Source: Patescibacteria group bacterium
Lineage (GTDB): Bacteria; Patescibacteriota; JACPGU01
Direction: 5' to 3'
Length of the DNA stretch: 64,000 nt
NCBI GenBank assembly: GCA_041675145.1
Contig: JBAYUK010000001.1
Span: 11,822 to 75,821, forward strand
How positions within the stretch are numbered: the stretch's first letter is position 1; every line of letters starts with the position of its first letter. The position numbers and the translations under genes are program-made. Shown here piece by piece: positions 14,982 through 51,343 of this stretch. The notes under the pieces are model-generated. The model searched no databases, had not been told where the DNA came from, and saw nothing but the letters and a program-made list of their open reading frames with translations.

Positions 14982-15698
14982 TTATATCTGATTAGGTACT
15001 GTCGGCGTTGGTTCATTGGTAGGCAATGTAGTACCGCTTCCTGTGCCAGTATTATTTACATCTGGATTTTGTCTGAAGTTTGGATCTGTGACTGGAGACC
15101 CAAGATTAACTCCGCCTGTAGCTGGTGTTACAGGAGAACCAATATCAACTCCAGTAGTACCGGGTAGATGCTGGTCGACTGGCGTTCCACCATCTCCACT
15201 GGGTGTTGGAGTAGGAGCTGGGTTACTTGTCGCAGGAGTTGCGCCGTTTAAGATCAGGTTGTTGGTATATGCCACTAGCGCATAGGACATCATTGCAATA
15301 ACTCCCCCAATAATGGCACCGGAGAGAGCCTTCTTCGCGGTCTCAACTTTCTTTGAGTCCCCTGCTGATGACGTGTACATGAGCCCGGATACAATAATCA
15401 TGAGTACCATAATGAGCGATGAGATTCCCAGAAGGTAGCCAAGAATTTTCTGTGCAAAACACAAGATAAGTGCCCTTCCATCGCCGTCGTTGGCTGCAGT
15501 TGCACACTTCAAGTCGTGTTGGTCTGCAGAAGTAGCGTTTTTCAATACTTCGTCAGGAGTAGCTGGGGTATCTGCACTAATATGTGCTTGTTCTGGTACT
15601 GAACTGAAACCAACAGCGCTCGCATATACCGGTGTAATGCCGAAGTTTACTCCAAGTAGTAGTGCTGTAAACGAAAGGATAAGTATGTGTTTTTTCAT
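14982..15698 (-). CDS. Secreted membrane protein with VirB2/TrbC-pilin-like topology and a Pro/Thr/Gly-rich tail
   Basis: Signal peptide MKKHILILSFTALLLGVNFGITPVYASA. A Cys pair is followed by two hydrophobic helices (ILGYLLGISSLIMVLMIIVSGLMY, IIGGVIAMMSYALVAYT) separated by a ~20-aa loop, then an ~80-aa PT-rich low-complexity tail. Lies 8 nt downstream of ATPase paralog B. Confidence 0.4.
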   Translation of the reverse strand: MKKHILILSFTALLLGVNFGITPVYASAVGFSSVPEQAHISADTPATPDEVLKNATSADQHDLKCATAANDGDGRALILCFAQKILGYLLGISSLIMVLMIIVSGLMYTSSAGDSKKVETAKKALSGAIIGGVIAMMSYALVAYTNNLILNGATPATSNPAPTPTPSGDGGTPVDQHLPGTTGVDIGSPVTPATGGVNLGSPVTDPNFRQNPDVNNTGTGSGTTLPTNEPTPTVPNQI

Positions 15699-27693: not shown

Positions 27694-28098
27694 TTACTTT
27701 AGGGTAACAGTACCACCAGCTTCAGTAAGCTTTGCCTTGATAGTTTCTGCTTCTTCTTTCTTTACATTCTCTTTGATGACCTTTGGAGCACCGTCAACAA
27801 GATCCTTTGCCTCTTTAAGGCCAAGCTCTGGCATTACTTCACGAATTGCCTTAATAACACCGATCTTGTTTTCGCCTGATGCAGTAAGTTCAACGTTGAA
27901 TGATGACTTCTCTTCTGCTGGAGCTGCGTCTACTGCGCCTGCTGCTGGACCTGCCATCATCATAGGAGCTGCTGCTGAAACACCAAACTTTTCTTCAAGT
28001 GCTGAAACGAGGTCAGCAACATCAATCAATTTCAACTTTTCGATTTCTTCAACCAACTTAGTTACTTCCTTTGAATACTCTTTTTTCTCGTCTGACAT
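27694..28098 (-). CDS. rplL: 50S ribosomal protein L7/L12
   Basis: 134 aa with an Ala/Pro hinge and C-terminus '[14 protein letters not shown]'. Confidence 0.95.
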
Positions 28099-28124: not shown

Positions 28125-28643
28125 TTATGCTGTTTTCTCACTAATTGCTTTAAGAGCGCGTACCAGTCCAGATGCCGGATTGTTGATGGTGCGAACAAGC
28201 TTGGTTCCAGGGTTCTGAAGGACACCAAGGAGTTTTGCGATCAATTCTTCCTTGCTTGGAATATCTGCGAGCTTCTCGATCTGAGACTTCGTTAAAAACT
28301 TACCATCGGCAAATCCACCGAGGATTTTGAGACTTGGGTTCTTCTTCGTAATCGCCTTAATGGCTTTGGGAATAGTAACCTCATCTTCAAATCCGTATGC
28401 CATAGCGAGCGCTGCTTTGTTTACAATCTGCTCAACAGTTGCTTTATCGCCGAAAGCGATTTCAGCTAGTGTTGATTTGGTGATTGCAAAGTTACCGCCT
28501 TGCTCTTTAATACCACGGCGTAGTGACTCCAAGTCCCCTACCTTCATACCTTTATAGTCGGTAAAAACGATAGCCTTAGACTTTGAAATATCTGATTTAA
28601 CCTTGGCTAAATCCGCGTCTTTTTGTGCTTTACTTTTTGCCAT
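28125..28643 (-). CDS. rplJ: 50S ribosomal protein L10
   Basis: 172 aa with 'AIVFTDYKGMKVGDLESLRR'. Located upstream of rplL. Confidence 0.9.
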   Translation of the reverse strand: MAKSKAQKDADLAKVKSDISKSKAIVFTDYKGMKVGDLESLRRGIKEQGGNFAITKSTLAEIAFGDKATVEQIVNKAALAMAYGFEDEVTIPKAIKAITKKNPSLKILGGFADGKFLTKSQIEKLADIPSKEELIAKLLGVLQNPGTKLVRTINNPASGLVRALKAISEKTA

Positions 28644-28858
28644 GTATCTCCTTTGCGCATTAAAAAATCTGCGTTATCCGCAGACATAATCAAAAGTCGA
28701 CCTGTGACTCTTTTGATTCCTGCACAGGATTTATCCCTTTCGGGTACCGGTGGTCTGGGGAAACTATGTGGTAATTATAACGCATGAATGGGGTATTAGT
28801 CAATATCTAGTAGAGCACTCCCCTCCTATGGTATAGTCCGGGTATACGCACCTGAATA
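28644..28858 (-). promoter_or_regulatory. 5' leader of rplJ-rplL, possible L10 autoregulatory leader
   Basis: A ~215-nt untranslated region upstream of rplJ with several stem-loops, for example gataacgcagatt and caggaatcaaaagagtcacagg. Assigned by position only. Confidence 0.3.
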
Positions 28859-28922
28859 TTGCAGACACACAAAAAACTACTGGGCACTACGCTTACTACA
28901 AGGAGGCTTGCTTTGAATAATG

Positions 28923-29440
28923 ACTTCCCCGGCACATCCCTTATACTCGGTATAGGGGTAGACCATAGCATTGGTAATGCTGGTGCATCCCCGTTGTGGC
29001 AACACACCAGCCAGCAGATTGAACTGGTTCGGTTTTTAACCGGATCAAGTAAAGAAAAAGGCGTGGTTGTTATTGGAGAAAACGCCTGGTCATTAGCCAA
29101 AGAAGCAGACCACGATCTGCCATGGGATTGCCCTACCATAGTTCTCAGTCAAAACCGGAAATTCACCCTTGAGAAATCTGAAGGCAAAGTTGCCCGCAGC
29201 TTAGCCGGGGTGAAAAAACTCGCCGGCAAGGATCGTCGAATCTGGGTGGTAGGTGGTTACGAAACGTTTGTCAGTTTCCTGCCACATGCCACGATGCTGT
29301 ATGTCAACATCTACCCCGTATCTCTGGGTGGTGACCTGAAGTTCATTCCCTCAGCTCTTCACTGGAACCAGTCAGGTGCCGGCAATATGTTTGCTGAGTA
29401 TGGCACCAAAACACTCACCTTCGCTCGGAATTCAATTTGA
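28923..29440 (+). CDS. Dihydrofolate reductase-family protein (divergent second copy)
   Basis: ORF 28859..29440. Likely TTG start at about 28923 with AGGAGG 6 nt upstream. 'LILGIGVDHSIGNAGASPLW', 'VVVIGENAWSL' and 'RIWVVGGYETFVSFLPHATMLYVNIYPVSLGGDLKFIP' follow the DHFR pattern (IGxxNxLPW, VIMGRxTWESI, VIGGxxxYxxxLP...LYLTxI...GDTxFP). Confidence 0.55.
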
Positions 29441-29457
29441 GCGTTTCACCGAAATGG

Positions 29458-29488
29458 GACCCGCACACTTTGTGTTGCGGGTTTTTTG
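29458..29488 (+). terminator. Rho-independent terminator
   Basis: acccgcacactttgtgttgcgggt plus T6. Confidence 0.65.
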
Positions 29489-29600
29489 TTGTGTAAATTT
29501 GTGTATACCAAGCTAAAATGTTATACTATATTTGCTAACAAAGCACAGTGAACCTGTAAAACTAGCACACAAAAATTTCTTCGCCTAAGGAGGGCACAAC

Positions 29601-30533
29601 ATGTTTACGTATCAGAAAGGCCTAAAGAAGGTGCACAAAAAAGGCATCATTAAAAAAGGACCGCAAGCGCATCCGACCTATTTCTACCCTGGGGTTGAGA
29701 TGCGATTCAACTTGAGAAGGGGCTTCCCTCTTCTCACTATTCGCAGCCTCAAAGGAAGTTGGAACGCCATTATTTCGGAGTTGCTCTGGATTCTATCTGG
29801 TAGCACCAACGCCTATGAGCTGCGAGACAATTATGGCGTTAAACAGCTTTGGCAAAACTATATTGGTCCATGCACTGCACTGCACGCCAAAAACAGGTAC
29901 AAGGGGCGTGCTCCAGGTGAGCTTGGGCCAATTTATGGTCACCAAATGAGAAATCATGGTGCTACCATGAGAAAAGACGGAACATTCAAAAACGATGGCC
30001 TTGATCAGCTCAACATGATTGTTCAGATGCTGAAGGTTATGCCCGAGAATCGTCGCATCATGGCTACCACTTGGAACCTTCGGGATTGCAATGATGATAA
30101 GGATGTGACGAAGGAGAAGACCTACATCGTTCCTTGTCATGGGTCTCAACTCCACTTTTCTGCTCCACAGGATCCAGGGAACCCTAAGCGGCGTCTTCTC
30201 AACCTTGTGCACTTCCAAAGGTCTGGAGATATGCCAATCGGCATTCCGTTTAACATCGCCGAATATGCACTGCTGATGTTTCTGATCGGCAAGATCACTG
30301 GTTATGTGCCGAATGAACTGATTCACTTTGTGTCAGACGCACAGATCTACAGTAACCAAGTTCCGTGGATTGATCCACTGCTGGCGCCGAAACCTTTGGC
30401 TTTGCCAACAGTGACCGTCCCGGATATTTCAGATCTAAGTATTGGAACCATCAAGGAGCTCAAAGCATCTGACTTTGGACTTCATGATTACAACCCGCAT
30501 CCGGCGATTAAAGACATCCCGGTAGAACTGTAA
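29601..30533 (+). CDS. thyA: Thymidylate synthase (ThyA family)
   Basis: 'MRFNLRRGFPLLTIRSL', 'ISELLWILSGSTN', 'LGPIYGHQMRNHG', active-site 'IVPCHGSQ', and 'IPFNIAEYALL' with the uracil-specifying Asn. AAGGAGGG RBS upstream. Confidence 0.85.
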   Translation: MFTYQKGLKKVHKKGIIKKGPQAHPTYFYPGVEMRFNLRRGFPLLTIRSLKGSWNAIISELLWILSGSTNAYELRDNYGVKQLWQNYIGPCTALHAKNRYKGRAPGELGPIYGHQMRNHGATMRKDGTFKNDGLDQLNMIVQMLKVMPENRRIMATTWNLRDCNDDKDVTKEKTYIVPCHGSQLHFSAPQDPGNPKRRLLNLVHFQRSGDMPIGIPFNIAEYALLMFLIGKITGYVPNELIHFVSDAQIYSNQVPWIDPLLAPKPLALPTVTVPDISDLSIGTIKELKASDFGLHDYNPHPAIKDIPVEL

Positions 30534-30542
30534 GGAGGCTCT

Positions 30543-31574
30543 ATGTCAGAACAGAAAATACCCGCCCTTGTGACGGCTATGACCTTCGAACGAGTGATCG
30601 GCTATCAGGGTTGTATGCCTTGGGGTCGCAACTCTCAAGACTTAAAAGCGTTTAAAGCGCTGACCACTAGTGATCCTGTCGGCAACGTGGTGATCATGGG
30701 ACATACAACCTGGAATAGTTTGCCTGAAAAGGCACGGCCACTTCCCGATCGTTTTAATATCGTGATGAGTAACGACAAATCTCTCACGGTGTTGCCTGGC
30801 GCATTCGTGGCGCACAGTGTCGAGGAAGCGCTCGCCCTTGTGCCAGATAACTACGCAGTCTGGGTGATCGGAGGCATGTTCATCTACAACCTCTTCGAGC
30901 CCTATGCTGACAAGATCTACATCACCCTGATCAATGAAGAACACATCGGTGATGCGTTCTTTCCACTTACCGCTGGTGACGAGTGGCAGGAGAACTATGA
31001 AGCGTGCCTTGAACTTGGTGGTAACATCACCAGGAACGAATACCGGCGCATTCTGCCTTCTGCTCGGTTGCTTCGCGTGCAGCAGGCCGTTGCAAATGCT
31101 GAGCAAAACGTTTCAGACATAGAAGTGGTTAACACAGCCAACGCACAGTCGGCTGAATACCAAAAAGATTTGCAGCAAATTCAGAAAACAGGCATCTGTC
31201 CGTTTTGTCTCGGTGGTAAAACAGATCTGAGCAACCCACTGCTGATGGAAATAAATGATTGGCGACTGATGCCAAACATCTTCAGCTACAAGGAAGCCAA
31301 GCACGCCTTCTTGCTTATTCCTGTTCGCCACATGACGGATGTCTCTGAGATGACCGTGAGTGACTTTCTGGGAGTTCAGGCGCTGGTTGCGTGGGCTCGT
31401 AAGAACTACGGCATCCCAGGTGGCGCAATTGCCTTAAGCGCAGTTGCAATGCGTTTTGGTCCTACGCCTAGCACGGGGGCAACTGTCACCCACTTGCATG
31501 GGCATTTCATCACTCCCCACCTTAATGCGGAAGGAACAGCGGCTAGTCCGCATGTCAACTTCCCGATTGGGTAA
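30543..31574 (+). CDS. folA: Dihydrofolate reductase fused to a C-terminal HIT-like (histidine triad) domain
   Basis: N-terminal ~165 aa carry 'CMPWGRNSQDLKAFKALT', 'VIMGHTTWNSLP', 'RFNIVMS' and 'VWVIGGMFIYNLFEPYADKIYITLINEEHIGDAFFP', a canonical DHFR. The C-terminal ~175 aa carry 'CPFC' and the triad 'HLHGHFI'. Confidence 0.7.
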   Translation: MSEQKIPALVTAMTFERVIGYQGCMPWGRNSQDLKAFKALTTSDPVGNVVIMGHTTWNSLPEKARPLPDRFNIVMSNDKSLTVLPGAFVAHSVEEALALVPDNYAVWVIGGMFIYNLFEPYADKIYITLINEEHIGDAFFPLTAGDEWQENYEACLELGGNITRNEYRRILPSARLLRVQQAVANAEQNVSDIEVVNTANAQSAEYQKDLQQIQKTGICPFCLGGKTDLSNPLLMEINDWRLMPNIFSYKEAKHAFLLIPVRHMTDVSEMTVSDFLGVQALVAWARKNYGIPGGAIALSAVAMRFGPTPSTGATVTHLHGHFITPHLNAEGTAASPHVNFPIG

Positions 31575-31589
31575 GAAAACAATTAACAG

Positions 31590-31624
31590 AAGGGCTTCTC
31601 CGTATGGTGGAGCCCTCTTTTTTT
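31590..31624 (+). terminator. Rho-independent terminator
   Basis: agggcttctccgtatggtggagccct plus T8. Confidence 0.65.
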
Positions 31625-31726
31625 ACATAAATTTGCTAAATCTAGCCAAATATGGCATAATTTCCATAGACCCTAGACTAAGTCTTGGAAAAACGTCCAT
31701 TTACATATCATGGAAAGGATTGATGT

Positions 31727-32005
31727 ATGCACCCATTACTTCAGACGCTTATTAGCGCTCTACTTCTTGTGCTGATGTTTAGTGGAGGCTACTACGCCAG
31801 CGGGTATATTATCCGCTGGAATGAGAAGCATCTCACTGGCACCGACATAGATAAAAAAAGACTGTGGGCCGCAGTTGAAACCAATGCGGACTACCGGCTT
31901 CACTGGGGCAGGAATATTGCTCATCTAAGAATTGTGATGACTATTCTCTCCCCTATCACCATCGGCAAGGCGATCTTCCTACGCATTCGCGGAGGATCGC
32001 TATAA
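31727..32005 (+). CDS. Small membrane hypothetical protein
   Basis: 92 aa with N-terminal TM LISALLLVLMFSGGYY. Promoter TTGCTA-17-CATAAT lies upstream at about 31633-31661. Confidence 0.4.
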   Translation: MHPLLQTLISALLLVLMFSGGYYASGYIIRWNEKHLTGTDIDKKRLWAAVETNADYRLHWGRNIAHLRIVMTILSPITIGKAIFLRIRGGSL

Positions 32006-32032
32006 ACACAATCGTCACACCCAGAAAGGGGC

Positions 32033-32836
32033 ATGAAAATGAGCGAAGAAAATGCACTGGTTAAAGTTGATAAAAGTTCCAGGCGGGAAACGGCTATCGA
32101 GCAAGCAAAGAGAATGGTCGAAGCATGCTTCTTGAAGGAAAATCGAGAAGAAAGAGTGCAGGGCTATCACCTGAAACTCAAAGAGGCCGAAGAGGAGCTG
32201 AAGTCGCTCCTTCCTATAGAAGGACAAGTGGTAAAGGGCATACTAGAGAGAAAAATTAGGCGCCTCAAGTACAGGATTGCAGACCCCGAGTTTGAGGAGC
32301 GCTACCCTCTTCTAAGTATGGAGGTGTTAAAGATGAGGAATGCTGAAGGATTCCCAGTGTTTGCTCCATTCTTTTTGGATTGCCAGACATTCTCGCTTTA
32401 CTTCAGCGGTGGTCGTGCCTACAGAGACGAAAGGGGTGGTGAAGTTATGAGACTACCCTCTGATATGAGGGCGATGTACCAAGATATCTTTGCCAAATGG
32501 AAAAAGGAAGCTAATAGTGTGCATTACTTTAGCGCCAAGATCACAGCACAGTTCAGTGGCGTGATACCACAAGCTGTTCGTAAAAGGATTGAACAAGTTT
32601 TGCCGGATTTTCAGCCAGGAAAGAAAAAAGTGTCGTTCTGGAATCGATTCGCTGGCCCTCAATCCACTCTCAATATTTTCTTACTTGCAGAAGTAAGGCG
32701 TTGGGAGGTGGATAAGGTGGTTATCCAGAACCCTGATCCCTTGGTAGTTGGGTACAGATACGGAGAGCTGCGACTGATTGACCATTTCGACGAAACTCCG
32801 ATGGAAGAGTATATTCGGCGGGAATTTACTCTCTGA
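32033..32836 (+). CDS. Hypothetical protein (267 aa)
   Basis: Clean ORF ending at a terminator ccccctcactgaaaggtgaggg plus T7. Confidence 0.5.
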   Translation: MKMSEENALVKVDKSSRRETAIEQAKRMVEACFLKENREERVQGYHLKLKEAEEELKSLLPIEGQVVKGILERKIRRLKYRIADPEFEERYPLLSMEVLKMRNAEGFPVFAPFFLDCQTFSLYFSGGRAYRDERGGEVMRLPSDMRAMYQDIFAKWKKEANSVHYFSAKITAQFSGVIPQAVRKRIEQVLPDFQPGKKKVSFWNRFAGPQSTLNIFLLAEVRRWEVDKVVIQNPDPLVVGYRYGELRLIDHFDETPMEEYIRREFTL

Positions 32837-32957
32837 CCCATTTCTTTTCAACTTAGAAGTTTCCCCCTCACTGAAAGGTGAGGGTATTTTTTTATCCGAA
32901 ACAACAAAACGCCCTGGAAAACCAGGGCGTTGTTTGTTTCGCAAGTAGCACATGGCG

Positions 32958-33833
32958 CTACTCGATGTTAGATGGTTCAAGCTGCACATGGATGACTTCA
33001 ACGCCGAAAGCGTGGAAGACTTCCGGCACATCCAGCGAAGCATGACCTTCAAGGAAATACACTTTCTTGACGCCAGCGGCTGCGATAAGTTTTGCGCAGA
33101 CGGGGCATGGAAAGGTAGAGATGTAGAGCGAGGTTCCCTCAAGAGACATACCTATTCGGGCTGCCTTTGAGATGATGGCCTGCTCGCTGTGAATGGCTGA
33201 GCAGAGCTCGCCGTTTTTTCCAGGCTCACAAGCATCACGGGGGTCGCCGTTGTAATATGGCGCCCACTCATTGGGGAGGTGCTGGTTGTGGTCTGCGAGC
33301 AAAATAGATCCTTCCAGCACAATCACGCCACCAACTTGTCTCCACCAATCGGAGGCAAGGCTCGCTTCACTTAAAGCGATACCCATCATCTCCTGGCTGA
33401 ATGTATCAGTGCTCATGGAGATATTGGGACTGACTGGCTTTTGGGTGAAAACATTCTTGCGATCCCACTGAAGGAAGGATGGGTCAACATGAATGGTTGG
33501 ATGCCGATCTGCAAGGAAACTTGAGAGGTATTCCTCGGTGACACCAAGAGACACTTCATCGCTTCCACAGTAAACCTCTTCAAGGTCGCAGTGTTTGGTG
33601 ATGTCCGACACCGAGCCCACACTGGTGAAGACCATGCGTGGTTCAATGCCGTGCAAGATGGTGGCCGCAACATCGCTGGGAAGCGCACGGATGTCAGGGC
33701 ACCGCTGGTAACTGGAGGCAAGTTTCAGGCTTGGGATGAAAACCATCTCTACTTCCTGATCTGCCCACTTTTTAACCAGCGAAAGGTTACCGCTGTGAAC
33801 AACGGGGTAGTTTAAGATTCCGATACGATACAC
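32958..33833 (-). CDS. dCMP/cytidine deaminase-family protein with a ~150-aa N-terminal nucleotidyltransferase-like extension
   Basis: C-terminus 'CSAIHSEQAIISKAARIG...YISTFPCPVCAKLIAAAGVKKVYF' has the HxE...PCxxC zinc deaminase motifs of ComEB/dCMP deaminase. N-terminus 'RIGILNYPVVHSGNLSL' resembles a degenerate GxFxPxHxGH motif. GTG start with AAGGAAAC RBS. Confidence 0.65.
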   Translation of the reverse strand: MYRIGILNYPVVHSGNLSLVKKWADQEVEMVFIPSLKLASSYQRCPDIRALPSDVAATILHGIEPRMVFTSVGSVSDITKHCDLEEVYCGSDEVSLGVTEEYLSSFLADRHPTIHVDPSFLQWDRKNVFTQKPVSPNISMSTDTFSQEMMGIALSEASLASDWWRQVGGVIVLEGSILLADHNQHLPNEWAPYYNGDPRDACEPGKNGELCSAIHSEQAIISKAARIGMSLEGTSLYISTFPCPVCAKLIAAAGVKKVYFLEGHASLDVPEVFHAFGVEVIHVQLEPSNIE

Positions 33834-33865
33834 ATTGTTTCCTTTGTTGTTTATTCAAGCAAGAT

Positions 33866-34581
33866 CTATTGCTGAGATTCACCCTTTTCTTCCCGTATTC
33901 GGGTAATTTCCTTGGCGGCCTTGAGGATGTTTGCTGAGAACTTTGGATTCCCTGCTTCGATTTTTTTGACCAGATCGGGATAACCCAATATGGTGGTTGC
34001 GATCTCTTCACAGATGTCAGTTGTTGATCCCGGTGCTTGACGAGGGATGAGATTGATGCGTGTGCAATAGAACCCAATTTCCTTGAGTTGCCTTTTTGGG
34101 TAACTCTCTTTAATAGCGGTGAACACATCAGGGAGAATTTCTTTAATGAGTTTGTAAGCCCAGATGCCTTTTTCGTTCACATCGTCAACAAAAGTCACGA
34201 TATCGACCGCACTCGTATGGGCGCACATTTCCGCGCGTTCATACTGATTGGTGTATGGTCGACTGGCATGCTTGTAGCGCTTTACCGATTCGTCGGTGTC
34301 TATCCCTAGAATAAGGAGGTCACCTTCTCTTTTTGCTTTCGCCATGTAGCGCATGTGTCCAATATGGGTCATGTCCATAGTCCCCATAGTGCAAGCAATT
34401 CGTGCACCAAATTGCCTCTTTTCTCTGACGAAAGTTCCAAGGTCGTTGGAGTCAAGGATAATTTTCCTTTGAACTTCGACCGGCATTGCTTCGAATTTGG
34501 AAAAGTCCATTTTCCCAATCACCGGATCTTTCTTAATCCGATCAAGTTTTAATGGGTGTTGCAATATTTGCTCGAGATTCA
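33866..34581 (-). CDS. Cytidylyltransferase-family (HIGH-motif nucleotidyltransferase) protein
   Basis: 'ACTMGTMDMTHIGHMRYMAKAKREGDLLILGIDTDESVKRYK' matches the TagD/HldE-type GxFDxxHxGH...GDxLxVxxxxD motif. Start chosen at ATG 34581 (MNLEQ) with GGAGGC upstream. Confidence 0.6.
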
Positions 34582-34785
34582 TGGTTGCCTCCTTAAGGCG
34601 TAGTTTTTTACTCGGATTGTCAAGGTGCCACAGGCACATAGAGATGAGGGCGCTATGCCCTCATGGGTATGGTAGCATACAAAAAGAAGGGCGGGCAATC
34701 TTGCAAAGTTTGCCTATTTTATGTATAAAATTACCCGCCAGACTCATGTGAGTGTGGCGGGTTAGAAAGTGGCTTATTTGAGCTG

Positions 34786-36531
34786 TTATTGCATCTTGAT
34801 GAAAATGCTGGATGGTTGAGTTCCCTGGTTGGCTCGTTGCGGTTCCTCGATCTTACTGAGAAAGCACGTGTCCATTGTGCGCCCAAGGAGTGCACACTTC
34901 CAGGTAGCGTGGATACTGCAATTCTCCACATGATCATCCTGGTCAAAGACGAAGGACTCGGGGTCATCTGCACACTGGCCGAACAAGTCCCCTTCCTTCA
35001 TGGTGGATTTGTATGTGTACAGATACTTATGGTGTTCGACAAAGTCATGCTCGGTTAGTTCCCAGATGAACTTCTCGTGTGCTGCATCGATTGTTTTTTT
35101 AAGCCAGGCAGACCTATCTTCACTAGGAGACATACTTTCATCCGGAAAGAATATTGGTCCATGCGACGCCCTTGCATCAACTTGAGCATGTTTGTTAAAG
35201 AATGCAACACGAGGCCTAGTGCATAGCACTATTTTTCCACTCATGTTGCGTACTGTCCCGTCATCTATACAGAACACAATACGCTCCATTTTGTCTGTGA
35301 CGCCCTTAGGCTCAGTTTCCCAGGAAAACATTCCCTCCTTGCTTTTAACCCAGGTTATTGGGAGTGTGCGCGTGCTGTATAGCCGTTCTCCCTTTCGTGC
35401 CCAAAACGGACTCGTGATCATGAGTTGCGGGATCTCCGCAATGTAGCTCGTCTCCTTCCCTTCTTCGGATGGGTTGGGATCCTGTATAGTAAAGGCCATC
35501 TCAATGGTTGCGTTATTGACCTTTGTTTGTGTAGCTTGAGCTTTAGCTACTACCATGCCGTTTTTATACAGCTGGATCCAGATTTTGCCCAAGCGCTTAG
35601 TAAACTCACCCTTGGTTACTTCGACGGTGCCACTTAATGCAAAGGTGTTCTGTATGTTCTCAGTAGTGATGCTGGGCACACGGTTGAACTTCAAAATCTT
35701 TGTGTTGCGCAGTGCCACCGTCTTGCCTTCTTGCAGTGCCGAGTAAAGACTGGCCTGGGTAAGGTCGTTTGCAAAGATGGCGGTAGTGATCAGCCCCATA
35801 CCAGAAGCGCGCCATGATCCGTCTGAGTGGAAGTCTTGTCCTCCCACCACAAACTGGTGCCGGCCTTTTTTAACGCCAGCAAGCAACAGTGAGAGGTCGT
35901 GGGTGTAGTTGACTGTCCCGCCAGTTGCAAGCGCCTTGATGTCGAGCCCGACCGTGTTCATCATTTCAATGGCATCAAATTGGTCAGCGCTGTCCCACCA
36001 GTTTTTGCAGTCTTTCGGGTGGTTGTAGACACAGATACCTTTCTCGTAATGGATGATATCTATAACACGTGCTACATCCCCTTCGCCGTATGTGTCTTGG
36101 TAGGTGTAGGACTCGGTGGTGGTTACTGGTGAAAACGCATTCATATGGCAGTAGCTTTTGGCGGGATTCTTCGCAACAGTCACTTCGCGTCCTGGGTAGA
36201 TGACGAAAATGTGATCTTCGTTTAAGATGTTGACTTCCTCCAGGTAGTCAGAAAACGAGTTTACTCCTGAGTGTTGGTGGAAGTTGTAAAACAGCTTTCC
36301 TTCCCGGTGGTGTAGGCTTTGCGGGGTAAAGAAACAGTCCCCGTGTTCACTCATGAAGATGAACTGCAGACCGAGTTGCTTGGCGCGTGTTTTGATTTCA
36401 CTGATGCCAAATTCACCGTCGCTATATGCAGAGTGGACATGTTCCCAGCCGGTATACGGCGTGTAGTCTTGGGCATGTGCCCGGTGGATCATAAGGAATA
36501 ACCCTATGATAAGTAGTATGCGCATGCGCAT
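34786..36531 (-). CDS. Secreted PHP-domain metal-dependent phosphoesterase (581 aa)
   Basis: Signal peptide MRMRILLIIGLFLMIHRAHA. PHP motifs 'HVHSAYSDGEFG' and 'IFMSEHGD', with a large C-terminal beta-rich extension. Confidence 0.65.
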   Translation of the reverse strand: MRMRILLIIGLFLMIHRAHAQDYTPYTGWEHVHSAYSDGEFGISEIKTRAKQLGLQFIFMSEHGDCFFTPQSLHHREGKLFYNFHQHSGVNSFSDYLEEVNILNEDHIFVIYPGREVTVAKNPAKSYCHMNAFSPVTTTESYTYQDTYGEGDVARVIDIIHYEKGICVYNHPKDCKNWWDSADQFDAIEMMNTVGLDIKALATGGTVNYTHDLSLLLAGVKKGRHQFVVGGQDFHSDGSWRASGMGLITTAIFANDLTQASLYSALQEGKTVALRNTKILKFNRVPSITTENIQNTFALSGTVEVTKGEFTKRLGKIWIQLYKNGMVVAKAQATQTKVNNATIEMAFTIQDPNPSEEGKETSYIAEIPQLMITSPFWARKGERLYSTRTLPITWVKSKEGMFSWETEPKGVTDKMERIVFCIDDGTVRNMSGKIVLCTRPRVAFFNKHAQVDARASHGPIFFPDESMSPSEDRSAWLKKTIDAAHEKFIWELTEHDFVEHHKYLYTYKSTMKEGDLFGQCADDPESFVFDQDDHVENCSIHATWKCALLGRTMDTCFLSKIEEPQRANQGTQPSSIFIKMQ

Positions 36532-36599
36532 GAGTCTTCTCCTTTGTGTTGTGATGTCAAAGAGCGTGTCTGTAGTATACCAAAAATAGCCGGGTATGG

Positions 36600-37247
36600 C
36601 TATTTTTTACCGTTGCAGGTGGTAGGATCCCACAGTCCCCTGTTGTTGCTTTTAGCATCAGACTGGGCTTCTTTAAACTGAGCCTGATACTGGTACGGTG
36701 TCTGGTAGGTGTACTCATACGCATATCCTTCCTCTACCATGAGCTGGTTGAATAGCGTCCCGTCTGGCAGATACACATAGCGCAAAAGCCTCCCGTATTT
36801 GTCGCGACTATCCTGGGTCGGGTCGGGTTCAAGCGCTATCTGTGTACCGGTAAGAATTTCCTTAGCGTGTTTACTGGCCTCCTGGCCAAAACACTCCACT
36901 GGCTTTCGTGGGTCTACCGTCTCGGGTGTGTTAATGCCGATTAATCTAATCTTTTCGTCCTTCCCATTGATATGTGCTATGAGGGTATCGCCGTCCACTA
37001 CCAGCACTACCGGAACAAGGTCTGATGCCTGTGGGGTAGTTGGTGGTGGAGTAGTGGGGTGTGTAGCTACCTCTTTTTCTACTCCCCTCTCTTTTTGGGT
37101 TGAGTGGGTATTTTGCGTAGCTACTTCTTTTTTCTCTGCGGGTGGTAGTGTAGTCTCGGCATGCGCATACCAGGCAGAAATGAAGAGGAGGATACTAAAG
37201 GTAAGATATGATAGGAGTTTTTTGGTAGTCATAGAAATACTATACAC
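36600..37247 (-). CDS. Secreted thermonuclease (staphylococcal nuclease/SNase family)
   Basis: Signal/TM followed by a Pro/Thr linker. 'VVDGDTLIAHINGKDEKIRLIGINTPE' and 'YGRLLRYVY' are SNase catalytic motifs. Confidence 0.75.
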   Translation of the reverse strand: MYSISMTTKKLLSYLTFSILLFISAWYAHAETTLPPAEKKEVATQNTHSTQKERGVEKEVATHPTTPPPTTPQASDLVPVVLVVDGDTLIAHINGKDEKIRLIGINTPETVDPRKPVECFGQEASKHAKEILTGTQIALEPDPTQDSRDKYGRLLRYVYLPDGTLFNQLMVEEGYAYEYTYQTPYQYQAQFKEAQSDAKSNNRGLWDPTTCNGKK

Positions 37248-37300: not shown

Positions 37301-37996
37301 TTATCCAAGCTTGCTTGTTTCTACCTTAATTCCGGGTCCCATAGTTGACGAGATCGCAATTGACTTAATGAGTGGACCTTTCACTGAAGACGGCTTATTC
37401 GCTACGAGAGCAGTAACAAAAGTATCAAAGTTTTCTTTGAGCTGAGCGGTCGTAAATGATACCTTTCCAATACCGGCATGAATACCAGCCAGTGAGTCAG
37501 CACGAAACTCGATTTTTCCTTTTTTGAAGTCACGAATAGTGTCTGCAAAGTTCGGTGTAACGGTACCAACCTTTGGGTTTGGCATCATACCACGAGATCC
37601 AAGAATCTTAGCGACCTTAGCAATCTTTGGCATCATGTCAGGGGTTGCTACCGCGATATCGAATGCGAGCCAGCCCTTGGTAATCTTTTCAATAAGTTTT
37701 TCAGTACCCACTTCGTCTGCTCCAGCATCAGTTGCTGCCTTTTCGTCTTTTTCTGAGACAAAGGCAATAACGCGTACTTTTTTACCAGTACCGTTAGGGA
37801 GAGTGGTAGTAGAACGGATACCCTGGTCAGCCTTAGTAGGGTTGGTGGTAAGCTTCACGTGTACTTCAACCGTACCATCAAACTTTGCAGTGTTGGTTTT
37901 TTTCACTAACTCAAGTGCTTCCTCTGTTGAGTATTTCTTGAGTAGGTCGAGACCTTCCACTGCTTTCGTATATTTTTTTCCGTATAGTTTTGCCAT
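37301..37996 (-). CDS. rplA: 50S ribosomal protein L1
   Basis: 'MAKLYGKKYTKAVEGLD...' is a typical L1. Start set at the internal ATG (MAKLYG) of ORF 37301..38017. Confidence 0.9.
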   Translation of the reverse strand: MAKLYGKKYTKAVEGLDLLKKYSTEEALELVKKTNTAKFDGTVEVHVKLTTNPTKADQGIRSTTTLPNGTGKKVRVIAFVSEKDEKAATDAGADEVGTEKLIEKITKGWLAFDIAVATPDMMPKIAKVAKILGSRGMMPNPKVGTVTPNFADTIRDFKKGKIEFRADSLAGIHAGIGKVSFTTAQLKENFDTFVTALVANKPSSVKGPLIKSIAISSTMGPGIKVETSKLG

Positions 37997-38047: not shown

Positions 38048-38473
38048 TTATTTCTCTACTTCAACGCCCATTTGCATAGCAGAGCCTGCAATGATGCGCT
38101 TTGCCATTTCAAGGTCAGTAGTATTTAAGTCAGGCATCTTTGCCTTCGCGATGTCGCCAAGCTGAGCCTGGGTTAATTTTCCTACCTTCTTCTTGTTCGC
38201 AGTCGGTGATCCTGATTCAAGACCAAGTGCCTTTTTGATCAAGTTGGTTACCGGCGGCTGCTTAGTGATGAAACTAAATGAACGGTCGTCATAAACAGTA
38301 ATCACACATGGAACAATCACATCACCCATAGATGCAGTATGATCGTTAAATGCCTTACAGAACTCCATGATGTTCACGCCGTTTTGACCGAGCGTAGAAC
38401 CGACCGGAGGGGCTGGGTTTGCCTTTCCTGCTGGGATCTGGAGCTTAATGAGATTCTTAATTGCCTTTGCCAT
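38048..38473 (-). CDS. rplK: 50S ribosomal protein L11
   Basis: '[25 protein letters not shown]'. Confidence 0.95.
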
Positions 38474-38522: not shown

Positions 38523-39263
38523 TTAGATTTTCTTAACCTGAAGGAAGTCGAGCTCCACGGGAGTTTCGCGACCGAAGATGTTAACCAGCGCCTTAACCTT
38601 ACCTTTTTCTTGATCCACTTCAGAGATGGTCGCTTCCATGTCTTTAAATGGTCCGTCGGTAATTTTAACATTCTCACCTGCTTCAAGGTCGATGCGGTAT
38701 TTCGGTTCGTCAGTACCCATGCGCTTCAAGATTAGTTCTACTTCTTCTTCAGAAATAGAAACAGGGTCAGCACCAGTTCCGATAAATCCTGTTACATTAG
38801 GAGTGTTGCGTACTACATACCATGAGTTCTTCGTCATGATCATGTTCACCAAGATATATCCTGGGAAGATTTTCTTTTCTACCTTCTTGCGCTTTCCGCC
38901 CTTGATCTCAATCTGCTTTTCTTTCGGTACGACAACATCAAAGATTTTATCTTTCATGTCGAGCGTATCAATACGGTGCTTGAGCGCATCAGCTACCTGA
39001 TCTTCGTATCCAGCGTAGGTATGGATAACATACCACTGACGGTGCGTATCTCGTTGCTTGTCTTCAGCGAGGATTTTACCACCGTATGCTTTACGGTCTT
39101 CGTCGTCTTCGTCTATCTCTCCTGCTTCGGTCTCAGTCTCGGTAACCTCGGCTGCAGTTTCTTCGATAGCTGCAAGATCTAGTTCTTGGTCATCTGAAGT
39201 AGCAGGAGTTGCCTCCTGTATAGCCTCAAACTCTTCTGGTTGTGTGTGTTGAGTGTCGTCCAT
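38523..39263 (-). CDS. nusG: Transcription termination/antitermination factor NusG with an acidic N-terminal extension
   Basis: NGN domain '[14 protein letters not shown]', KOW '[22 protein letters not shown]', and a ~75-aa Asp/Glu-rich N-terminus. Confidence 0.85.
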
Positions 39264-39282: not shown

Positions 39283-39495
39283 TTACGATGTAAATGATAG
39301 CAGTGCTTTTACGCCTGCAGCCAAACCGTAGTCAAATAGTCCAATCAGTACGGCTCCAGCAACAATACAGCCAATAACAAGGAGTGTTTTGCGTAGTACT
39401 TCACTGCGAGTCGGCCATACCACACGAGTAAGTTCAGTGTAGGCTTCTTTTATAAAGCGAGTAAGAAAAAATGAGCGTGCCATAGTGCTTACCAA
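39283..39495 (-). CDS. secE: Preprotein translocase subunit SecE
   Basis: 70 aa with '[31 protein letters not shown]'. Confidence 0.85.
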
Positions 39496-43665: not shown

Positions 43666-44235
43666 TTAGAAGGCGAACAGAAGATCATCCTTGTTTTCCG
43701 TTTCTTTAGGAGGAGTCTTCTCTTGCGCTTTTTTATTGGTAAGCAGTGGATCCAGCTCGTGGCAAAAGGTTCTTGCCTTTGCCTGAATTTCTGCTGGATA
43801 CTCCTTAAGTGAATCTTGGTCGCAGATATCCGGCATCATGACAAAGAATTCTTTTTCCCAGTTCCCTTTCCGTTGCATAAGAAAAAGTTGTCCGTTGCTC
43901 GCACGGGCGGCAATGACCTTTTTCTTAGGTGGGGTGCATTCATTTAAAGACTCCACCAACCACATTTGAATAAGTTCAATGCGGAAGGAAGCAATCTCCA
44001 TTTTTTTACGAGCTCGAAAGTCGGCGCAGACTGAGGAGTAGACGATATCGTCGTAGGCTCCGAGAAACACTTTTTCCGTTTTGCGCTTCACTTCCGGGTT
44101 GTTGGTGGTGACGAAAAACAGCTTTGCGGTGGTCACCTGTGGTTCTGGAGGCTGGTTGGTTCCCTTTGCAGGGGTGGCAAAAGCCACAGTCCCTACTAAG
44201 CAAAGTAAAGCCTTAGTTAAGTGCTTTGTTGGCAT
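43666..44235 (-). CDS. Secreted hypothetical protein
   Basis: Signal peptide MPTKHLTKALLCLVGTVAFATPAKG. Terminator hairpin downstream on the minus strand (gaacccgccccacaaaggcgggtttc). Confidence 0.5.
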   Translation of the reverse strand: MPTKHLTKALLCLVGTVAFATPAKGTNQPPEPQVTTAKLFFVTTNNPEVKRKTEKVFLGAYDDIVYSSVCADFRARKKMEIASFRIELIQMWLVESLNECTPPKKKVIAARASNGQLFLMQRKGNWEKEFFVMMPDICDQDSLKEYPAEIQAKARTFCHELDPLLTNKKAQEKTPPKETENKDDLLFAF

Positions 44236-44828
44236 CTCACTCTCCTTTTCATGAGGTCGATAGCTTCTTGTGCTAGGTCCGCGACAGTTTTTTCGGGTGT
44301 GACCGAAATCATAATGAGTCGGCTCTTGCTCCGGTAGTAGGACAACATCGGGACGGTGAGATTGAGCCAGTTTTCCCAGCGGTTGGAAAAAATAGCAGGA
44401 TCATCATCCACCCTATCCTCTTTTGCAAGTCGTTCTTTGTTGCGGTCAGTACACAGTCTTTTAGATGCATCTAGATGCAAAATGACTGCCAGTGGCAAGC
44501 CCTTGCGCTCAAGCATAGCGTCCAATGCTTCTGCCTGATCGCAGGTTCTGGGGCTGTCAATTAACATCCCAACCCTAGGCTTGTATTTGTCCATGTTCCA
44601 TTCAAGAACATCACAGACGACTTCTGCTGAAACAAGGTTGCCAGAGGGCTTTACACGCAAAATTTCCTCTGTGTGATAGCCCTTTAGTGCAACATGCTCA
44701 TCCATAAGTTTACTTAAGAGGACATAATGAAGAATAAGGCGTTTTGCCATTTCAAGTCCAAAGAGTGTTTTTCCAGAACAAGGTGGTCCAACCACCCCTA
44801 TTGATTCGTTGGTTTCGAGTAGTGACAT
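44217..44828 (-). CDS. Nucleoside monophosphate kinase (adenylate/cytidylate kinase family)
   Basis: P-loop 'IGVVGPPCSGKTLFG'. Start at ATG 44828 (MSLLETNE) rather than the 365-aa ORF start. Confidence 0.6.
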   Translation of the reverse strand: MSLLETNESIGVVGPPCSGKTLFGLEMAKRLILHYVLLSKLMDEHVALKGYHTEEILRVKPSGNLVSAEVVCDVLEWNMDKYKPRVGMLIDSPRTCDQAEALDAMLERKGLPLAVILHLDASKRLCTDRNKERLAKEDRVDDDPAIFSNRWENWLNLTVPMLSYYRSKSRLIMISVTPEKTVADLAQEAIDLMKRRVRCQQST

Positions 44829-45084
44829 GCTGCTTCCTTCCCGCCTTTGGCGTTTACGATGTGAGTTTTTAAGAGTGCGTTTTGGGACAAAAAATCGGAG
44901 AAAATCCTCCGATGAGTAGTATACACGAAATGAGTAAATAAGGGAATAAAAAAGGGAGTCGCTCATATGATGCGACTCCCCAAGCTTGGGGTCTGGCGAC
45001 CCGGGAACTCCAGAGGCTGGAGTCTCGCCCACAAGGCGATAGATGTCACTCCCGACCGGGAGTGACCAAGAAATGGCAGATAAA

Positions 45085-45654
45085 TCAGCGGTTGATAGGC
45101 CGGCTGACCTCGGTGGAAGCGGAAGCCAAACGAAAGTTGTCCGTGCTATGGCAACTTGAATCCACCCGGAATTCATTGGTAAACAGCTGAACATTTTTAT
45201 CCTTGTCCAGGTATTTAACCTCGAGAGTGACGAATTCGGCATCCCGAATGGAGTATGGAGAGGTCGAGATGACCGTTCCCGTTTCGTCCTGCCGGGCGTA
45301 GCTGTACACCTCAAGGTCGGTTGCGTTGTCTCGCAGAACCACCTCTTTGGTGTCGTAGTTGTTCCCGGTTAGGAAATGACCGTCCAGCCAAATGTTACCA
45401 TCGGCGTAATTGAAACACCGCAGGGTGTGATCTGCCGGATAGACCGTGGCGCCGAAGTCATGGCCATCGATCTTAACATCGATGACAACCGAGAATGTCA
45501 GGGGTCGTCCCGTGACATTGTTCACCGCCTTAAAGTCCACATCGTAGCGGCCGTCCGGAATGGTGAAGGGCGTGGAATACGCCCAGCCTGTGGTTTGTGA
45601 CCAGTCATCCATGTGAAGTGGAATTCTGGTCAGTTCCCGACTGGCGGAAACCAC
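45085..45654 (-). CDS. Hypothetical protein in GC-rich island
   Basis: 189-aa ORF with beta-rich composition. An alternative start at MDDWSQ is possible. Confidence 0.45.
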   Translation of the reverse strand: MVSASRELTRIPLHMDDWSQTTGWAYSTPFTIPDGRYDVDFKAVNNVTGRPLTFSVVIDVKIDGHDFGATVYPADHTLRCFNYADGNIWLDGHFLTGNNYDTKEVVLRDNATDLEVYSYARQDETGTVISTSPYSIRDAEFVTLEVKYLDKDKNVQLFTNEFRVDSSCHSTDNFRLASASTEVSRPINR

Positions 45655-50673: not shown

Positions 50674-51342
50674 CTATAATTTCGGTATGTCTTCTTTTTC
50701 TCCCGTGAGTGTGTTGTAGTAGCGCTCACCACCCCATAAGCCTCGTTGTGCTTGTTTTGCTTCTGTTTCAAACGAGGTGAAGTCTCCTGCTCGAATGAGG
50801 GACGGAGTAACAGGAAATTCGTGAGCTAGACCTGCTCTTAGCATTTCAATATTAATATTTTTCCGCTCAAGATACACAATACCTCGAAGTCGTCCAAAAT
50901 CGTCTTCCGTATTCTCGCTGTCTGGCAACAATAAGATTTCACGATGTTCTACCATCGAGCGCAAAAAGTCTGTTGCTTCTAAGCCATACTCCTCGTCCTT
51001 GTCTGGAGCTTTGATGCCAGCTAGACGCACCCGAGTAGTGCCATCGATAATGAGCGTGCTTCCGTCAATAACAGCGGAGACGAGGTAGGATTTAAGTCCT
51101 GCTGGGGGAAGGTCTTGTATTCTTGTGGTAGTCTCGCGTTCATCTTCGTGTATAACAGATAAGCTCTGGTCATCTTTTACGAAGGGTAGATGAGGCCACG
51201 GCTTTGCAGGAAGTATTTCAAGTGGTGTATTGGATGCGGCTGAGGTGGTTAGTTCAAAGCTGGCAATAGCAAAAAGACCAGCCGACACCACGGTAAGTAT
51301 GATCATGCTTGTTGCTGTTTGTTTGAGATGGTAGTGCCACAT
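50674..51342 (-). CDS. Membrane-anchored thermonuclease (SNase family)
   Basis: TM 'MIILTVVSAGLFAIASF', then 'VIDGSTLIIDGTTRVRLAGIKAPD' and 'FGRLRGIVYL'. Start at ATG 51342. Confidence 0.7.
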   Translation of the reverse strand: MWHYHLKQTATSMIILTVVSAGLFAIASFELTTSAASNTPLEILPAKPWPHLPFVKDDQSLSVIHEDERETTTRIQDLPPAGLKSYLVSAVIDGSTLIIDGTTRVRLAGIKAPDKDEEYGLEATDFLRSMVEHREILLLPDSENTEDDFGRLRGIVYLERKNINIEMLRAGLAHEFPVTPSLIRAGDFTSFETEAKQAQRGLWGGERYYNTLTGEKEDIPKL

Positions 51343-51343
51343 G

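Follow-up and report, generated by a model that had tools for sequence, protein, structure and literature searches.

Among the described systems closest to the locus considered here are ribosomal-protein clusters of the rplKAJL-rpoBC type known from Escherichia coli, where the L11 and L10 units have separate promoters, and thymidylate gene sets such as bacterial thyA-folA/dfrA and the td-frd-cd genes of phage T4, phages commonly carrying thyA/frd/cd sets. Both come together in a 64-kb stretch of DNA (hereafter the window) from the 428-kb contig JBAYUK010000001.1 of a metagenome-assembled Patescibacteria group bacterium (assembly GCA_041675145.1), in which nine genes, including those for a thymidylate synthase (ThyA), a dihydrofolate reductase (DHFR) and a putative deoxycytidylate (dCMP) deaminase, occupy the gap between rplK-rplA and rplJ-rplL. 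The order secE-nusG-rplK-rplA ... rplJ-rplL of E. coli is retained, and rplJ has its own promoter-like site, in parallel to the separate L11 and L10 promoters. In contrast to E. coli, the two units are separated by 8.6 kb, neither rpoB nor rpoC comes after rplL in the window, and the split is the norm in Patescibacteria.

Patescibacteria and DPANN are thought to lack de novo nucleotide synthesis and to keep the synthesis of thymidylate (dTMP) in a minimal repertoire, and thyA can be exchanged horizontally (PMC12455944). A preliminary description of the window had interpreted the gap content as a functional island inserted into a normally rigid ribosomal-protein locus. We arrive at a different reading: the gap content is probably the local form of a long-standing arrangement of Patescibacteria that places thymidylate genes between secE-nusG-rplK-rplA and rplJ-rplL, and was not recently inserted as a unit. 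The searchable literature holds no description of thymidylate genes that occur repeatedly at rplA/rplJ in Patescibacteria, of an association between the cytidylyltransferase-like protein CTL, the deaminase fusion dcdF and a HIT protein, or of a DHFR-HIT fusion.

Results and Discussion

Gene Content of the Gap

The gap gene set was derived from a map of the open reading frames (ORFs) of the window combined with Pfam and NCBIfam scans. All nine ORFs that the preliminary description had placed between rplJ-rplL and rplK-rplA were recovered at or near the same coordinates, and the family assignments and gene identities that it had given proved correct in these scans. Two independent assemblies of this organism (ENA ERZ27247358 and Logan SRR6484325) agree in the arrangement, which excludes misassembly. 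The locus comprises the following features:

27694-28098, minus strand: rplL (Pfam Ribosomal_L12 and L12_N), downstream border of the gap
28125-28643, minus strand: rplJ (Pfam Ribosomal_L10), downstream border of the gap
28774-28803, minus strand: sigma-70-like promoter upstream of rplJ (TTGACT-18-TATAAT, 11/12 matches; consensus scan only)
28913-29440 (ORF opens at 28859), plus strand: DHFR-like paralogue (DHFR_1, 28.6 bits, barely over the cut-off)
29601-30533, plus strand: ThyA (Pfam, 202.8 bits)
30543-31574, plus strand: DHFR-HIT fusion (DHFR_1, 118 bits; HIT half by profile)
31727-32005, plus strand: 92-aa protein with two hydrophobic segments (hydropathy)
32033-32836, plus strand: 267-aa orphan, hyp267 (ORF only)
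32908-32931, no strand: bidirectional terminator-like hairpin between the convergent blocks (10-bp stem, 7 GC pairs)
32958-33833, minus strand: dcdF, 291 aa, N-domain plus predicted dCMP deaminase (Pfam; 145-aa N-extension)
33866-34582/34639, minus strand: CTL, CTP_transf_like (Pfam/NCBIfam, motifs)
34786-36531, minus strand: PHP-type protein, 581 aa (PHP, 24.3 bits; CehA/McbA, 78 bits)
36600-37247, minus strand: SNase (Pfam, 89.6 bits)
37301-37996, minus strand: rplA (Pfam), upstream border of the gap
38048-38473, minus strand: rplK (Pfam), upstream border
38523-39263, minus strand: nusG, preceding rplK
39283-39495, minus strand: secE, preceding nusG, with rplU further upstream

The plus block (DHFR-like paralogue, ThyA, DHFR-HIT, 92-aa protein and hyp267) and the minus block (SNase, PHP, CTL and dcdF) converge on the hairpin at 32908-32931. 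The promoter-like site at 28774-28803, found by consensus scan, suggests that rplJL forms a transcription unit of its own. The minus block lies on the same strand as rplA and directly after it, and no terminator is predicted before 32931, so that read-through of SNase-PHP-CTL-dcdF from the ribosomal-protein operon is possible and the block may be co-transcribed with this operon. An Rfam scan of the window matched neither an L10 nor an L1 leader RNA nor anything else.

The Gap in Other Patescibacteria

For the synteny sample, one genome per GTDB species was scanned with RplA, which gave 80 loci (48-55% identity), nearly all of them from Saccharibacteria or other Patescibacteria, onto which the window proteins were then mapped. 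The scan returned no close relative in this genome collection, the top match being 55% identical. Where both genes are present (62 loci), rplA and rplJ are at most 400 bp apart in only 8 cases and more than 1 kb apart in 52 (median 4.0 kb, maximum 6.8 kb); thyA lies in the gap in 14/62 loci and a DHFR gene in 13/62. When the gap ORFs were clustered and representatives scanned, a recurrent Saccharibacteria set emerged that consists of ThyA, DHFR, a HIT protein of ~127 aa, a dCTP-deaminase-like protein (PF22769) and Tmk. A locus from a high-GC member of the Patescibacteria (L084) has rplA followed by a dCMP deaminase, a P-loop kinase, a dUTPase, ThyX and Tmk. Together with the Saccharibacteria set, this locus identifies thymidylate genes beside rplA as a recurring theme that is realized with non-orthologous enzymes.

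The Saccharibacteria gap cluster (L073, L066, L078, L082 and others) occupies the same chromosomal slot as the genes in the window, leads to the same dTMP/dTDP output and has ThyA, DHFR and a small HIT protein in common with them. It differs in that it includes the dCTP-deaminase-like enzyme and Tmk, lacks CTL, dcdF, PHP and SNase, and keeps DHFR and HIT as separate, divergently transcribed genes. When the Saccharibacteria gap genes (Tmk, DCD and others) were searched against the window by tblastn, only HIT matched, and neither Tmk nor a dCTP deaminase was detectable in the 64 kb.

The picture of an island in a normally rigid locus does not withstand these data: rplA and rplJ are rarely adjacent (8/62), the gaps of relatives hold overlapping gene sets (PHP; thyA/DHFR/HIT/DCD/tmk), and this is the kind of finding that the preliminary description had itself named as speaking against an insertion (the same interruption with unrelated genes in related genomes, or pairs that are never adjacent in this lineage). 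Contiguity of rplKAJL is not to be assumed when islands are called in Patescibacteria.

Other features of the sampled loci may be recorded here. The genes rplK and rplA are likewise more than 1 kb apart in 55/65 loci (L006-L083, Saccharibacteria; median ~3 kb). Many oral and gut Saccharibacteria (L009-L035) encode in the gap a protein of ~710 aa whose C-terminal part is RelA/SpoT-like (PF04607, 28 bits; for example L011, 12234-14366), accompanied by Tmk and a protein of 169-186 aa, and the gap of oral Nanosynbacter contains a Big_8 surface protein and a WhiB regulator.

Relatives with a PHP-Type Protein in the Gap

In a word-indexed protein search, the 581-aa PHP-type protein matched nothing but itself. 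Exhaustive HMMER searching of 1.84 billion representatives yielded 64 relatives, the closest three of which are 35-37% identical over residues ~20-420. These are the three PHP contexts that were inspected: all of them lie between rplA and rplJ, on contigs that keep the wider order of the window, ileS-rplU-secE-nusG-rplK-rplA-(gap)-rplJ-rplL-...-tgt:

L091: rplA-PHP-dCMP deaminase (163 aa)-h207-rplJ
L092: (Y1 transposase)-PHP-h167-dUTPase/dCMP-deaminase fusion-rplJ; the contig begins at the transposase
L094: rplA-h168-PHP-h197-rplJ; Candidatus Microgenomates, GCA_016188915.1

The proteins of L091 are 78% (NusG), 69% (RplK), 67% (RplL) and 59% (RplA) identical to those of the window. A dCMP-deaminase gene is present in the gaps of L091 and L092 and absent from that of L094, and the small gap genes of these relatives (h207, h167, h168 and h197) match neither each other nor window proteins nor Pfam. 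The PHP protein, predicted to be secreted, is a lineage marker of the rplA-rplJ gap that is common to the window and its Microgenomates-like relatives. An IS200/Y1-type transposase lies directly upstream of PHP at the expected position of rplA in L092 (2-607) and L093 (45-674).

A Recurrent CTL-dcdF-HIT-DHFR-ThyA Module

A metagenome scan with ThyA returned one distant organism only (L085/L086, 38% identity). On its 647-kb contig, thyA, CTL and full-length versions of both dcdF and the DHFR-HIT fusion are arranged in the convergent order of the window, between rplCDW and groESL. The dcdF architecture itself is found in at least 400 homologues of ~275-290 aa, and those with a named source come mostly from Parcubacteria-type Patescibacteria. 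Nine dcdF contexts were inspected, with taxonomy as deposited; besides the window and L086 these are:

L087 (Wolfebacteria): groESL ... CTL, dcdF, then facing HIT, DHFR, ThyA
L088: secE, nusG, rplK, rplA, 73-aa ORF, CTL, dcdF, then facing HIT, DHFR, ThyA
L089/90: CTL, dcdF, PIG-L, then facing HIT, ThyA; then dUTPase, DHFR, dNK, Tmk
L096: CTL, dcdF, then facing HIT, ThyA, DHFR
L097 (metagenome-assembled genome labelled Aenigmarchaeota): CTL, dcdF, one ORF, HIT-like, ... archaeal MtrA-ThyA fusion
L178: secE, nusG, rplK, DHFR, CTL, dcdF, then facing HIT, ThyA; then SHMT
L179: groESL, CTL, dcdF, then facing HIT; then ThyA, YfbR-like HD

CTL is positioned directly upstream of dcdF in 9/9 contexts, often with a 4-nt overlap, and in all nine HIT is at most two genes away and ThyA nearby, at protein identities of 31-45%. 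The module adjoins secE-nusG-rplK(-rplA) in three contexts (window, L088 and L178) and groESL in another three (L086, L087 and L179). A fusion of DHFR to HIT is seen in two unrelated genomes (window and L086), and the two are separate adjacent genes in most other contexts (among them L087, L088 and L096) as well as in Saccharibacteria, which constitutes a Rosetta-stone type link between the two.

In L097 (6417-9197; GCA_016932615.1), the CTL-dcdF-(ORF)-HIT-like arrangement is found in an assembled genome with archaeal hallmarks, namely a wyosine-synthesis radical-SAM gene and an MtrA-ThyA-pterin-binding fusion; the occurrence of the trio under an archaeal label suggests exchange between bacteria of the candidate phyla radiation and DPANN archaea. 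In L088 an HTH_38/rve integrase-like gene directly follows ThyA. The transposase- and integrase-like genes in L088, L092 and L093 are signs of a recombinationally active slot.

Thymidylate Enzymes of the Gap

ThyA exceeds the curated cut-offs over its full length (Pfam PF00303, 202.8 vs 24.3 bits; TIGR03284, 152.2 vs 108.35 bits). An alignment with human thymidylate synthase shows that it retains the catalytic Cys (in PCH), both residues of the Arg-Arg pair, the Asn of PFNIA that specifies dUMP, and the Asp and Tyr of the DAxIY motif in the folate site; His256 is replaced by Gln, the phosphate-binding position Arg50 (human)/Arg21 (E. coli) is not conserved, and there are two insertions. The DHFR domain of the fusion (30543-31040; residues ~9-152; PF00186) was aligned with an E. 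coli reference sequence, as was the DHFR paralogue, and has an equivalent of Asp27 in SQDLKAF as well as MGHTTW, DRFNIV and VIGG, which correspond to the GRxT, Arg57 and GG motifs.

The paralogue at 28913-29440 has Gln in place of Asp27, GENA in place of GRxT and DCPT in place of DRxN, and keeps only the GG motif and an overall fold signal. It is 28% identical to the neighbouring DHFR domain, its best match in the Protein Data Bank (PDB) is a DHFR at only E = 9e-6, and no orthologue was seen in any fetched locus. Because it lacks equivalents of Asp27, Arg44/Thr46 and Arg57, we file it as DHFR-like and not as DHFR; it is probably not a canonical DHFR, and may be a pseudoenzyme or a neofunctionalised binder of folate or nucleotides.

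The HIT domain (PF01230; fusion residues ~215-343) carries CxxC and HLHGHFI motifs and belongs to the Hint branch. Among 11 family members H137, H139, C39 and C42 are invariant and H141 is kept in at least 90%. As a single sequence the domain stays below the Pfam threshold (DcpS_C, 17.9 bits), while its profile matches HIT/Hint structures (3oj7 at 1.8e-9).

The Deaminase Fusion dcdF and Its Neighbour CTL

The deaminase domain of dcdF (residues ~146-291; PF00383) contains the HSE and PCPVC zinc motifs, and H215, E217, P242, C243 and C246 are invariant in 39-40 homologues. In the AlphaFold2 (AF2) model, which has a predicted local distance difference test (pLDDT) value of 88, the top deaminase neighbours in Foldseek are the dCMP deaminases of T4, S-TIM5 (cyanophage), S. 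mutans and human (E = 1.6e-9 to 1e-7). From these best structural neighbours and the ThyA context we infer that dCMP is the likely substrate.

The N-domain (residues 1-~128; motif PVVHSGN), modelled alone, forms a five-stranded alpha/beta structure (AF2 pLDDT 86.6), and its top 50 Foldseek matches in the PDB are almost all nucleotidyltransferases, pantothenate synthetases and universal stress proteins, including 3do8, Fom1 CyTase, TagD, NMNAT, PPAT and HldC. The pattern PV[LV]HxG[YN] is nearly invariant and occupies the same place after strand 1 as HxGH in nucleotidyltransferases. A sequence-profile search against the PDB gave no significant match for this domain, which according to the structural model is nucleotidyltransferase-like and would have a HUP-like fold. 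The complete dcdF architecture is absent from the 2.9 million viral contigs of IMG/VR, where all 104 viral relatives match the deaminase half only.

CTL is a member of PF01467 of the GCT/CCT/ECT type. Its H73-I-G-H76 and RQAxxSTS motifs are kept in five orthologues, and it matches ethanolamine-phosphate cytidylyltransferase (ECT; PDB 3elb, 4.8e-24), HldC (6.7e-23) and TagD (1.7e-11) as well as CCT.

SNase, PHP and the Small Proteins

SNase (PF00565) scores 89.6 bits vs a cut-off of 21, and 128 bits with the NucI-like model, below the equivalog cut-off of 250. By manual inspection its N-terminus (MTTKKLLSYLTFSILLFISAWYAHA/E) is signal-peptide-like, and both SNase and PHP start with a signal-peptide-like n-h-c segment ending in AHA; the PHP homologues have hydrophobic N-termini too. 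The domain and the predicted signal peptide are shared with the S. aureus thermonuclease (Nuc/NucI), from which the protein differs by a Thr/Pro-rich linker after the signal peptide. Among the gaps examined SNase was seen only here and is a lineage-specific addition. A second SNase-family protein (246 aa; PF00565 at 1.2e-16) is encoded at 50674-51414 on the minus strand, 13 kb from the gap, so that the gap SNase is one of at least two paralogues in the genome.

The PHP protein scores slightly below both relevant cut-offs (PF02811, 24.3 vs 26.4 bits; CehA/McbA, NF038032, 78 vs 80 bits), and its homologues P0125-P0127 pass the PHP cut-off. It has an HVHSAYSDG motif, a CehA/McbA-like N-terminal region of ~380 aa and a poorly conserved C-terminus, and is predicted to be a secreted metallo-phosphoesterase of the PHP superfamily.

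Enzymes of the SNase type leave 3'-phosphates, which makes a phosphatase a logical partner. Based on the signal peptides, the family-level chemistry and the repeated co-location of PHP and dCMP deaminase, SNase and PHP may plausibly digest extracellular nucleic acid to importable products: SNase would cleave extracellular DNA or RNA, and the removal of phosphates or the shortening of oligonucleotides would fall to PHP. Among the gap genes there is no transporter or kinase that links the extracellular with the intracellular steps.

The 92-aa protein was found in the window only and belongs to no Pfam family. Hyp267 has no match in Pfam, NCBIfam, PHROG or PADLOC, and a search of 5.8 billion proteins recovered only itself.

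Elsewhere in the window, 4998-7832 (plus strand), 14982-15698 (minus strand) and 15707-18211 (minus strand) encode two VirD4/TrwB-like coupling ATPases and a type IV secretion system pilin (TrbC/VirB2-like). These type IV secretion-type genes could represent a DNA-uptake or conjugation-type machinery that is perhaps relevant to the acquisition of nucleic acid. An adenylate-kinase domain (PF00406) follows an N-terminal region of ~170 aa in the product of 44217-45314 (minus strand), and the surroundings of this gene at 45-47 kb are the GC-richest part of the window (0.52-0.55).

Origin of the Gap Content

Several observations weigh against a long-standing arrangement. The complete nine-gene combination has so far been seen in this genome only, both protein and metagenome searches included, and the gaps of L091, L092 and L094 lack thyA, DHFR-HIT, CTL and dcdF. 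The module occupies other positions in other genomes (beside groESL in L086, L087 and L179), and it has a transposase- or integrase-like neighbour in L088, as does PHP in L092/L093, which indicates that the module has moved during evolution. Moreover, the nine gap genes have a mean GC content at third codon positions (GC3) of 0.525 vs 0.438 ± 0.062 for the other 56 genes of the window (p = 1.8e-4), each single gene (0.485-0.575) being above the window mean of 0.438, and the gap interval has the largest tetranucleotide distance among windows of 8.4 kb. The gap genes of L091 and L094 are not compositionally deviant, so that part of the content found here may have been replaced by horizontal transfer.

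Of these observations, the deviant composition, the varying position of the module, the transposase-like neighbours and the unique gene combination also favour the view that a functional island was acquired horizontally and recently inserted as a unit into an otherwise canonical rplKAJL cluster. We nevertheless regard this as unlikely, since an interruption between rplA and rplJ is the norm in the phylum (54/62 loci), three relatives of matching wider synteny have PHP at this position, two of them together with a dCMP-deaminase gene, and thymidylate genes are found in the Saccharibacteria gap and after rplA or rplK in L084, L088 and L178. Furthermore, the locus shows no marks of a mobile element: a tRNA scan detected no tRNA in the window and thus no tRNA integration site, Pfam and NCBIfam identified no integrase or transposase among the nine gap genes, phage genes were not seen, and in place of att-like direct repeats the search for flanking direct or inverted repeats gave only short (14-35 nt), imperfect pairs at chance level, none of which brackets the gap. 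Among the features by which genomic islands are recognized, only deviant composition is present, and weakly so; the same site is occupied by related genes in relatives. The raised GC3 could stem from foreign origin in the more distant past or from expression at a different level.

Alternatively, the genes could be chance neighbours, that is, genome streamlining could have packed unrelated genes into a permissive gap, with no link beyond that between ThyA and DHFR. The wide variation of gap content (Big_8 and WhiB in oral Nanosynbacter, RelA/SpoT-like proteins in others) and the three of nine genes without detectable homologues or function would fit such a scenario, which is made very unlikely by the joint occurrence of CTL, dcdF, HIT and ThyA in 9/9 contexts at 31-45% identity and different chromosomal positions, and by the two independent DHFR-HIT fusions.

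An anti-phage defence island, in which a nucleotide-depleting dCTP/dCMP deaminase acts together with nucleases, is extremely improbable and was rejected on the basis of partial matches and genomic context: dcdF matches the anti-phage dCTP deaminase NF041025 over residues 206-271 only (63.6 bits vs a cut-off of 400) and aligns with the PADLOC dCTPase model over just 57 of its 630 positions, while SNase hits SNc+LTD, a candidate family of PADLOC. None of these matches reaches beyond the core that zinc deaminases have in common or beyond the general SNase domain. In nine lineages dcdF has ThyA, DHFR and in some cases SHMT or Tmk as neighbours, a setting typical of biosynthesis, SNase and PHP carry putative export signals, unlike an intracellular abortive-infection effector, and the other seven gap proteins have no PADLOC match. 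Just as improbable is a prophage- or phage-derived module for nucleotide metabolism or DNA hypermodification, in which the ThyA homologue would be a pyrimidine hydroxymethylase; this reading was likewise rejected on partial matches and context: all three enzymes of the thyA/frd/cd types match PHROG families and ThyA is divergent (insertions, one phosphate-binding Arg not conserved), but ThyA keeps the dUMP-specifying Asn and the catalytic Cys, the functional-looking DHFR fused next door implies dihydrofolate production and hence true thymidylate synthase chemistry, no structural or replication genes of phages were seen, viral contigs lack the dcdF architecture, and the locus is chromosomal and syntenic across lineages.

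Returning to the long-standing arrangement, the most economical reading is that of an old, permissive inter-operon slot whose nucleotide-metabolism cargo was reshuffled over long times, with a possible non-recent gain of the five-gene module in this lineage. The degenerate DHFR paralogue, the small membrane protein and the 267-aa orphan would represent lineage-specific additions.

Proposed Mechanism

The intracellular route that the preliminary description had outlined, from dCMP via deoxyuridylate (dUMP) to dTMP with DHFR recycling the folate, is well supported as a prediction by motifs, folds and co-travelling genes in many genomes. In this route, dcdF with its complete dCMP-deaminase domain would convert dCMP to dUMP, ThyA would convert dUMP to dTMP and dihydrofolate, and the DHFR domain would reduce dihydrofolate to tetrahydrofolate. 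CTL, the N-domain of dcdF and HIT presumably act at or upstream of the deaminase step, for which two options can be envisaged: In the first, dCMP would be supplied in two stages, in which a cytidylyl group would be transferred from (d)CTP or from a donor linked to (d)CMP, and (d)CMP would then be set free by a HIT-type reaction. In the second, the N-domain, perhaps paired with CTL in an ECT-like manner, would serve as a sensor of cytidine nucleotides that replaces the classical dCTP/dTTP allosteric site.

Whether the linked trio of CTL, dcdF N-domain and Hint-type HIT constitutes a hitherto undescribed first stage of dTMP synthesis in ultra-small bacteria and DPANN-like archaea, either as a relay from (d)CTP or a scavenged CDP-linked compound to dCMP or as a CTL/N-domain heterodimer that gates the deaminase by the cytidine-nucleotide pool, is doubtful, and we put it forward as a tentative proposal. 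Three points weigh against the proposed roles of these proteins. The Foldseek scores of the N-domain are modest (E = 3.5e-3 to 2.5e-2; template modelling (TM) scores of 0.4-0.58, ~0.55). An hhalign comparison of the N-domain with CTL aligns the motifs without reaching significance (E = 0.049, 1% probability). In Saccharibacteria, HIT accompanies ThyA and DHFR in the absence of CTL and dcdF, so that a relay from CTL to HIT does not suffice as the sole explanation and the role of HIT may be more general, for example the production of a monophosphate from a di- or triphosphate.

Comparison with Known Systems

While the headline of an inserted island is largely refuted, the conserved module with its three unexplained components is a genuine lead. 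The dTMP genes form a conserved module with three extra proteins, that is, CTL, the N-domain of the deaminase and HIT; this module recurs beside secE-nusG-rplK-rplA, and Microgenomates-like lineages keep a PHP protein, predicted to be secreted, in the same slot. These proteins provide concrete, testable candidates for how the organisms obtain dCMP and dUMP.

In its chemistry the locus corresponds to the classical thymidylate gene sets, and its ribosomal context is that of a broken rplKAJL cluster. As in bacterial thyA-folA/dfrA and phage T4 td-frd-cd, the dCMP deaminase, ThyA and DHFR chemistries are co-located. In contrast to these sets, the deaminase begins with an additional, putatively nucleotidyltransferase-like domain; the gene before it invariably encodes a predicted cytidylyltransferase, and a HIT protein, which in the window is fused to DHFR, accompanies it. 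Protozoan DHFR-TS offers a precedent for the fusion of thymidylate-cycle enzymes; here, however, DHFR is fused to HIT, and ThyA is encoded by a separate, adjacent gene. Compared with ECT, TagD and CCT, the context is one of deoxynucleotide metabolism and not of lipid or teichoic-acid synthesis. With ECT (3elb) and TagD/CCT/HldC, CTL shares the HxGH and RTEGISTS-like motifs; the N-domain of dcdF, which lacks RTEGISTS, would belong to the same fold class and has HxG[Y/N] after strand 1. Finally, the two tandem cytidylyltransferase domains of ECT provide a possible model for the combination of CTL with the N-domain of dcdF.

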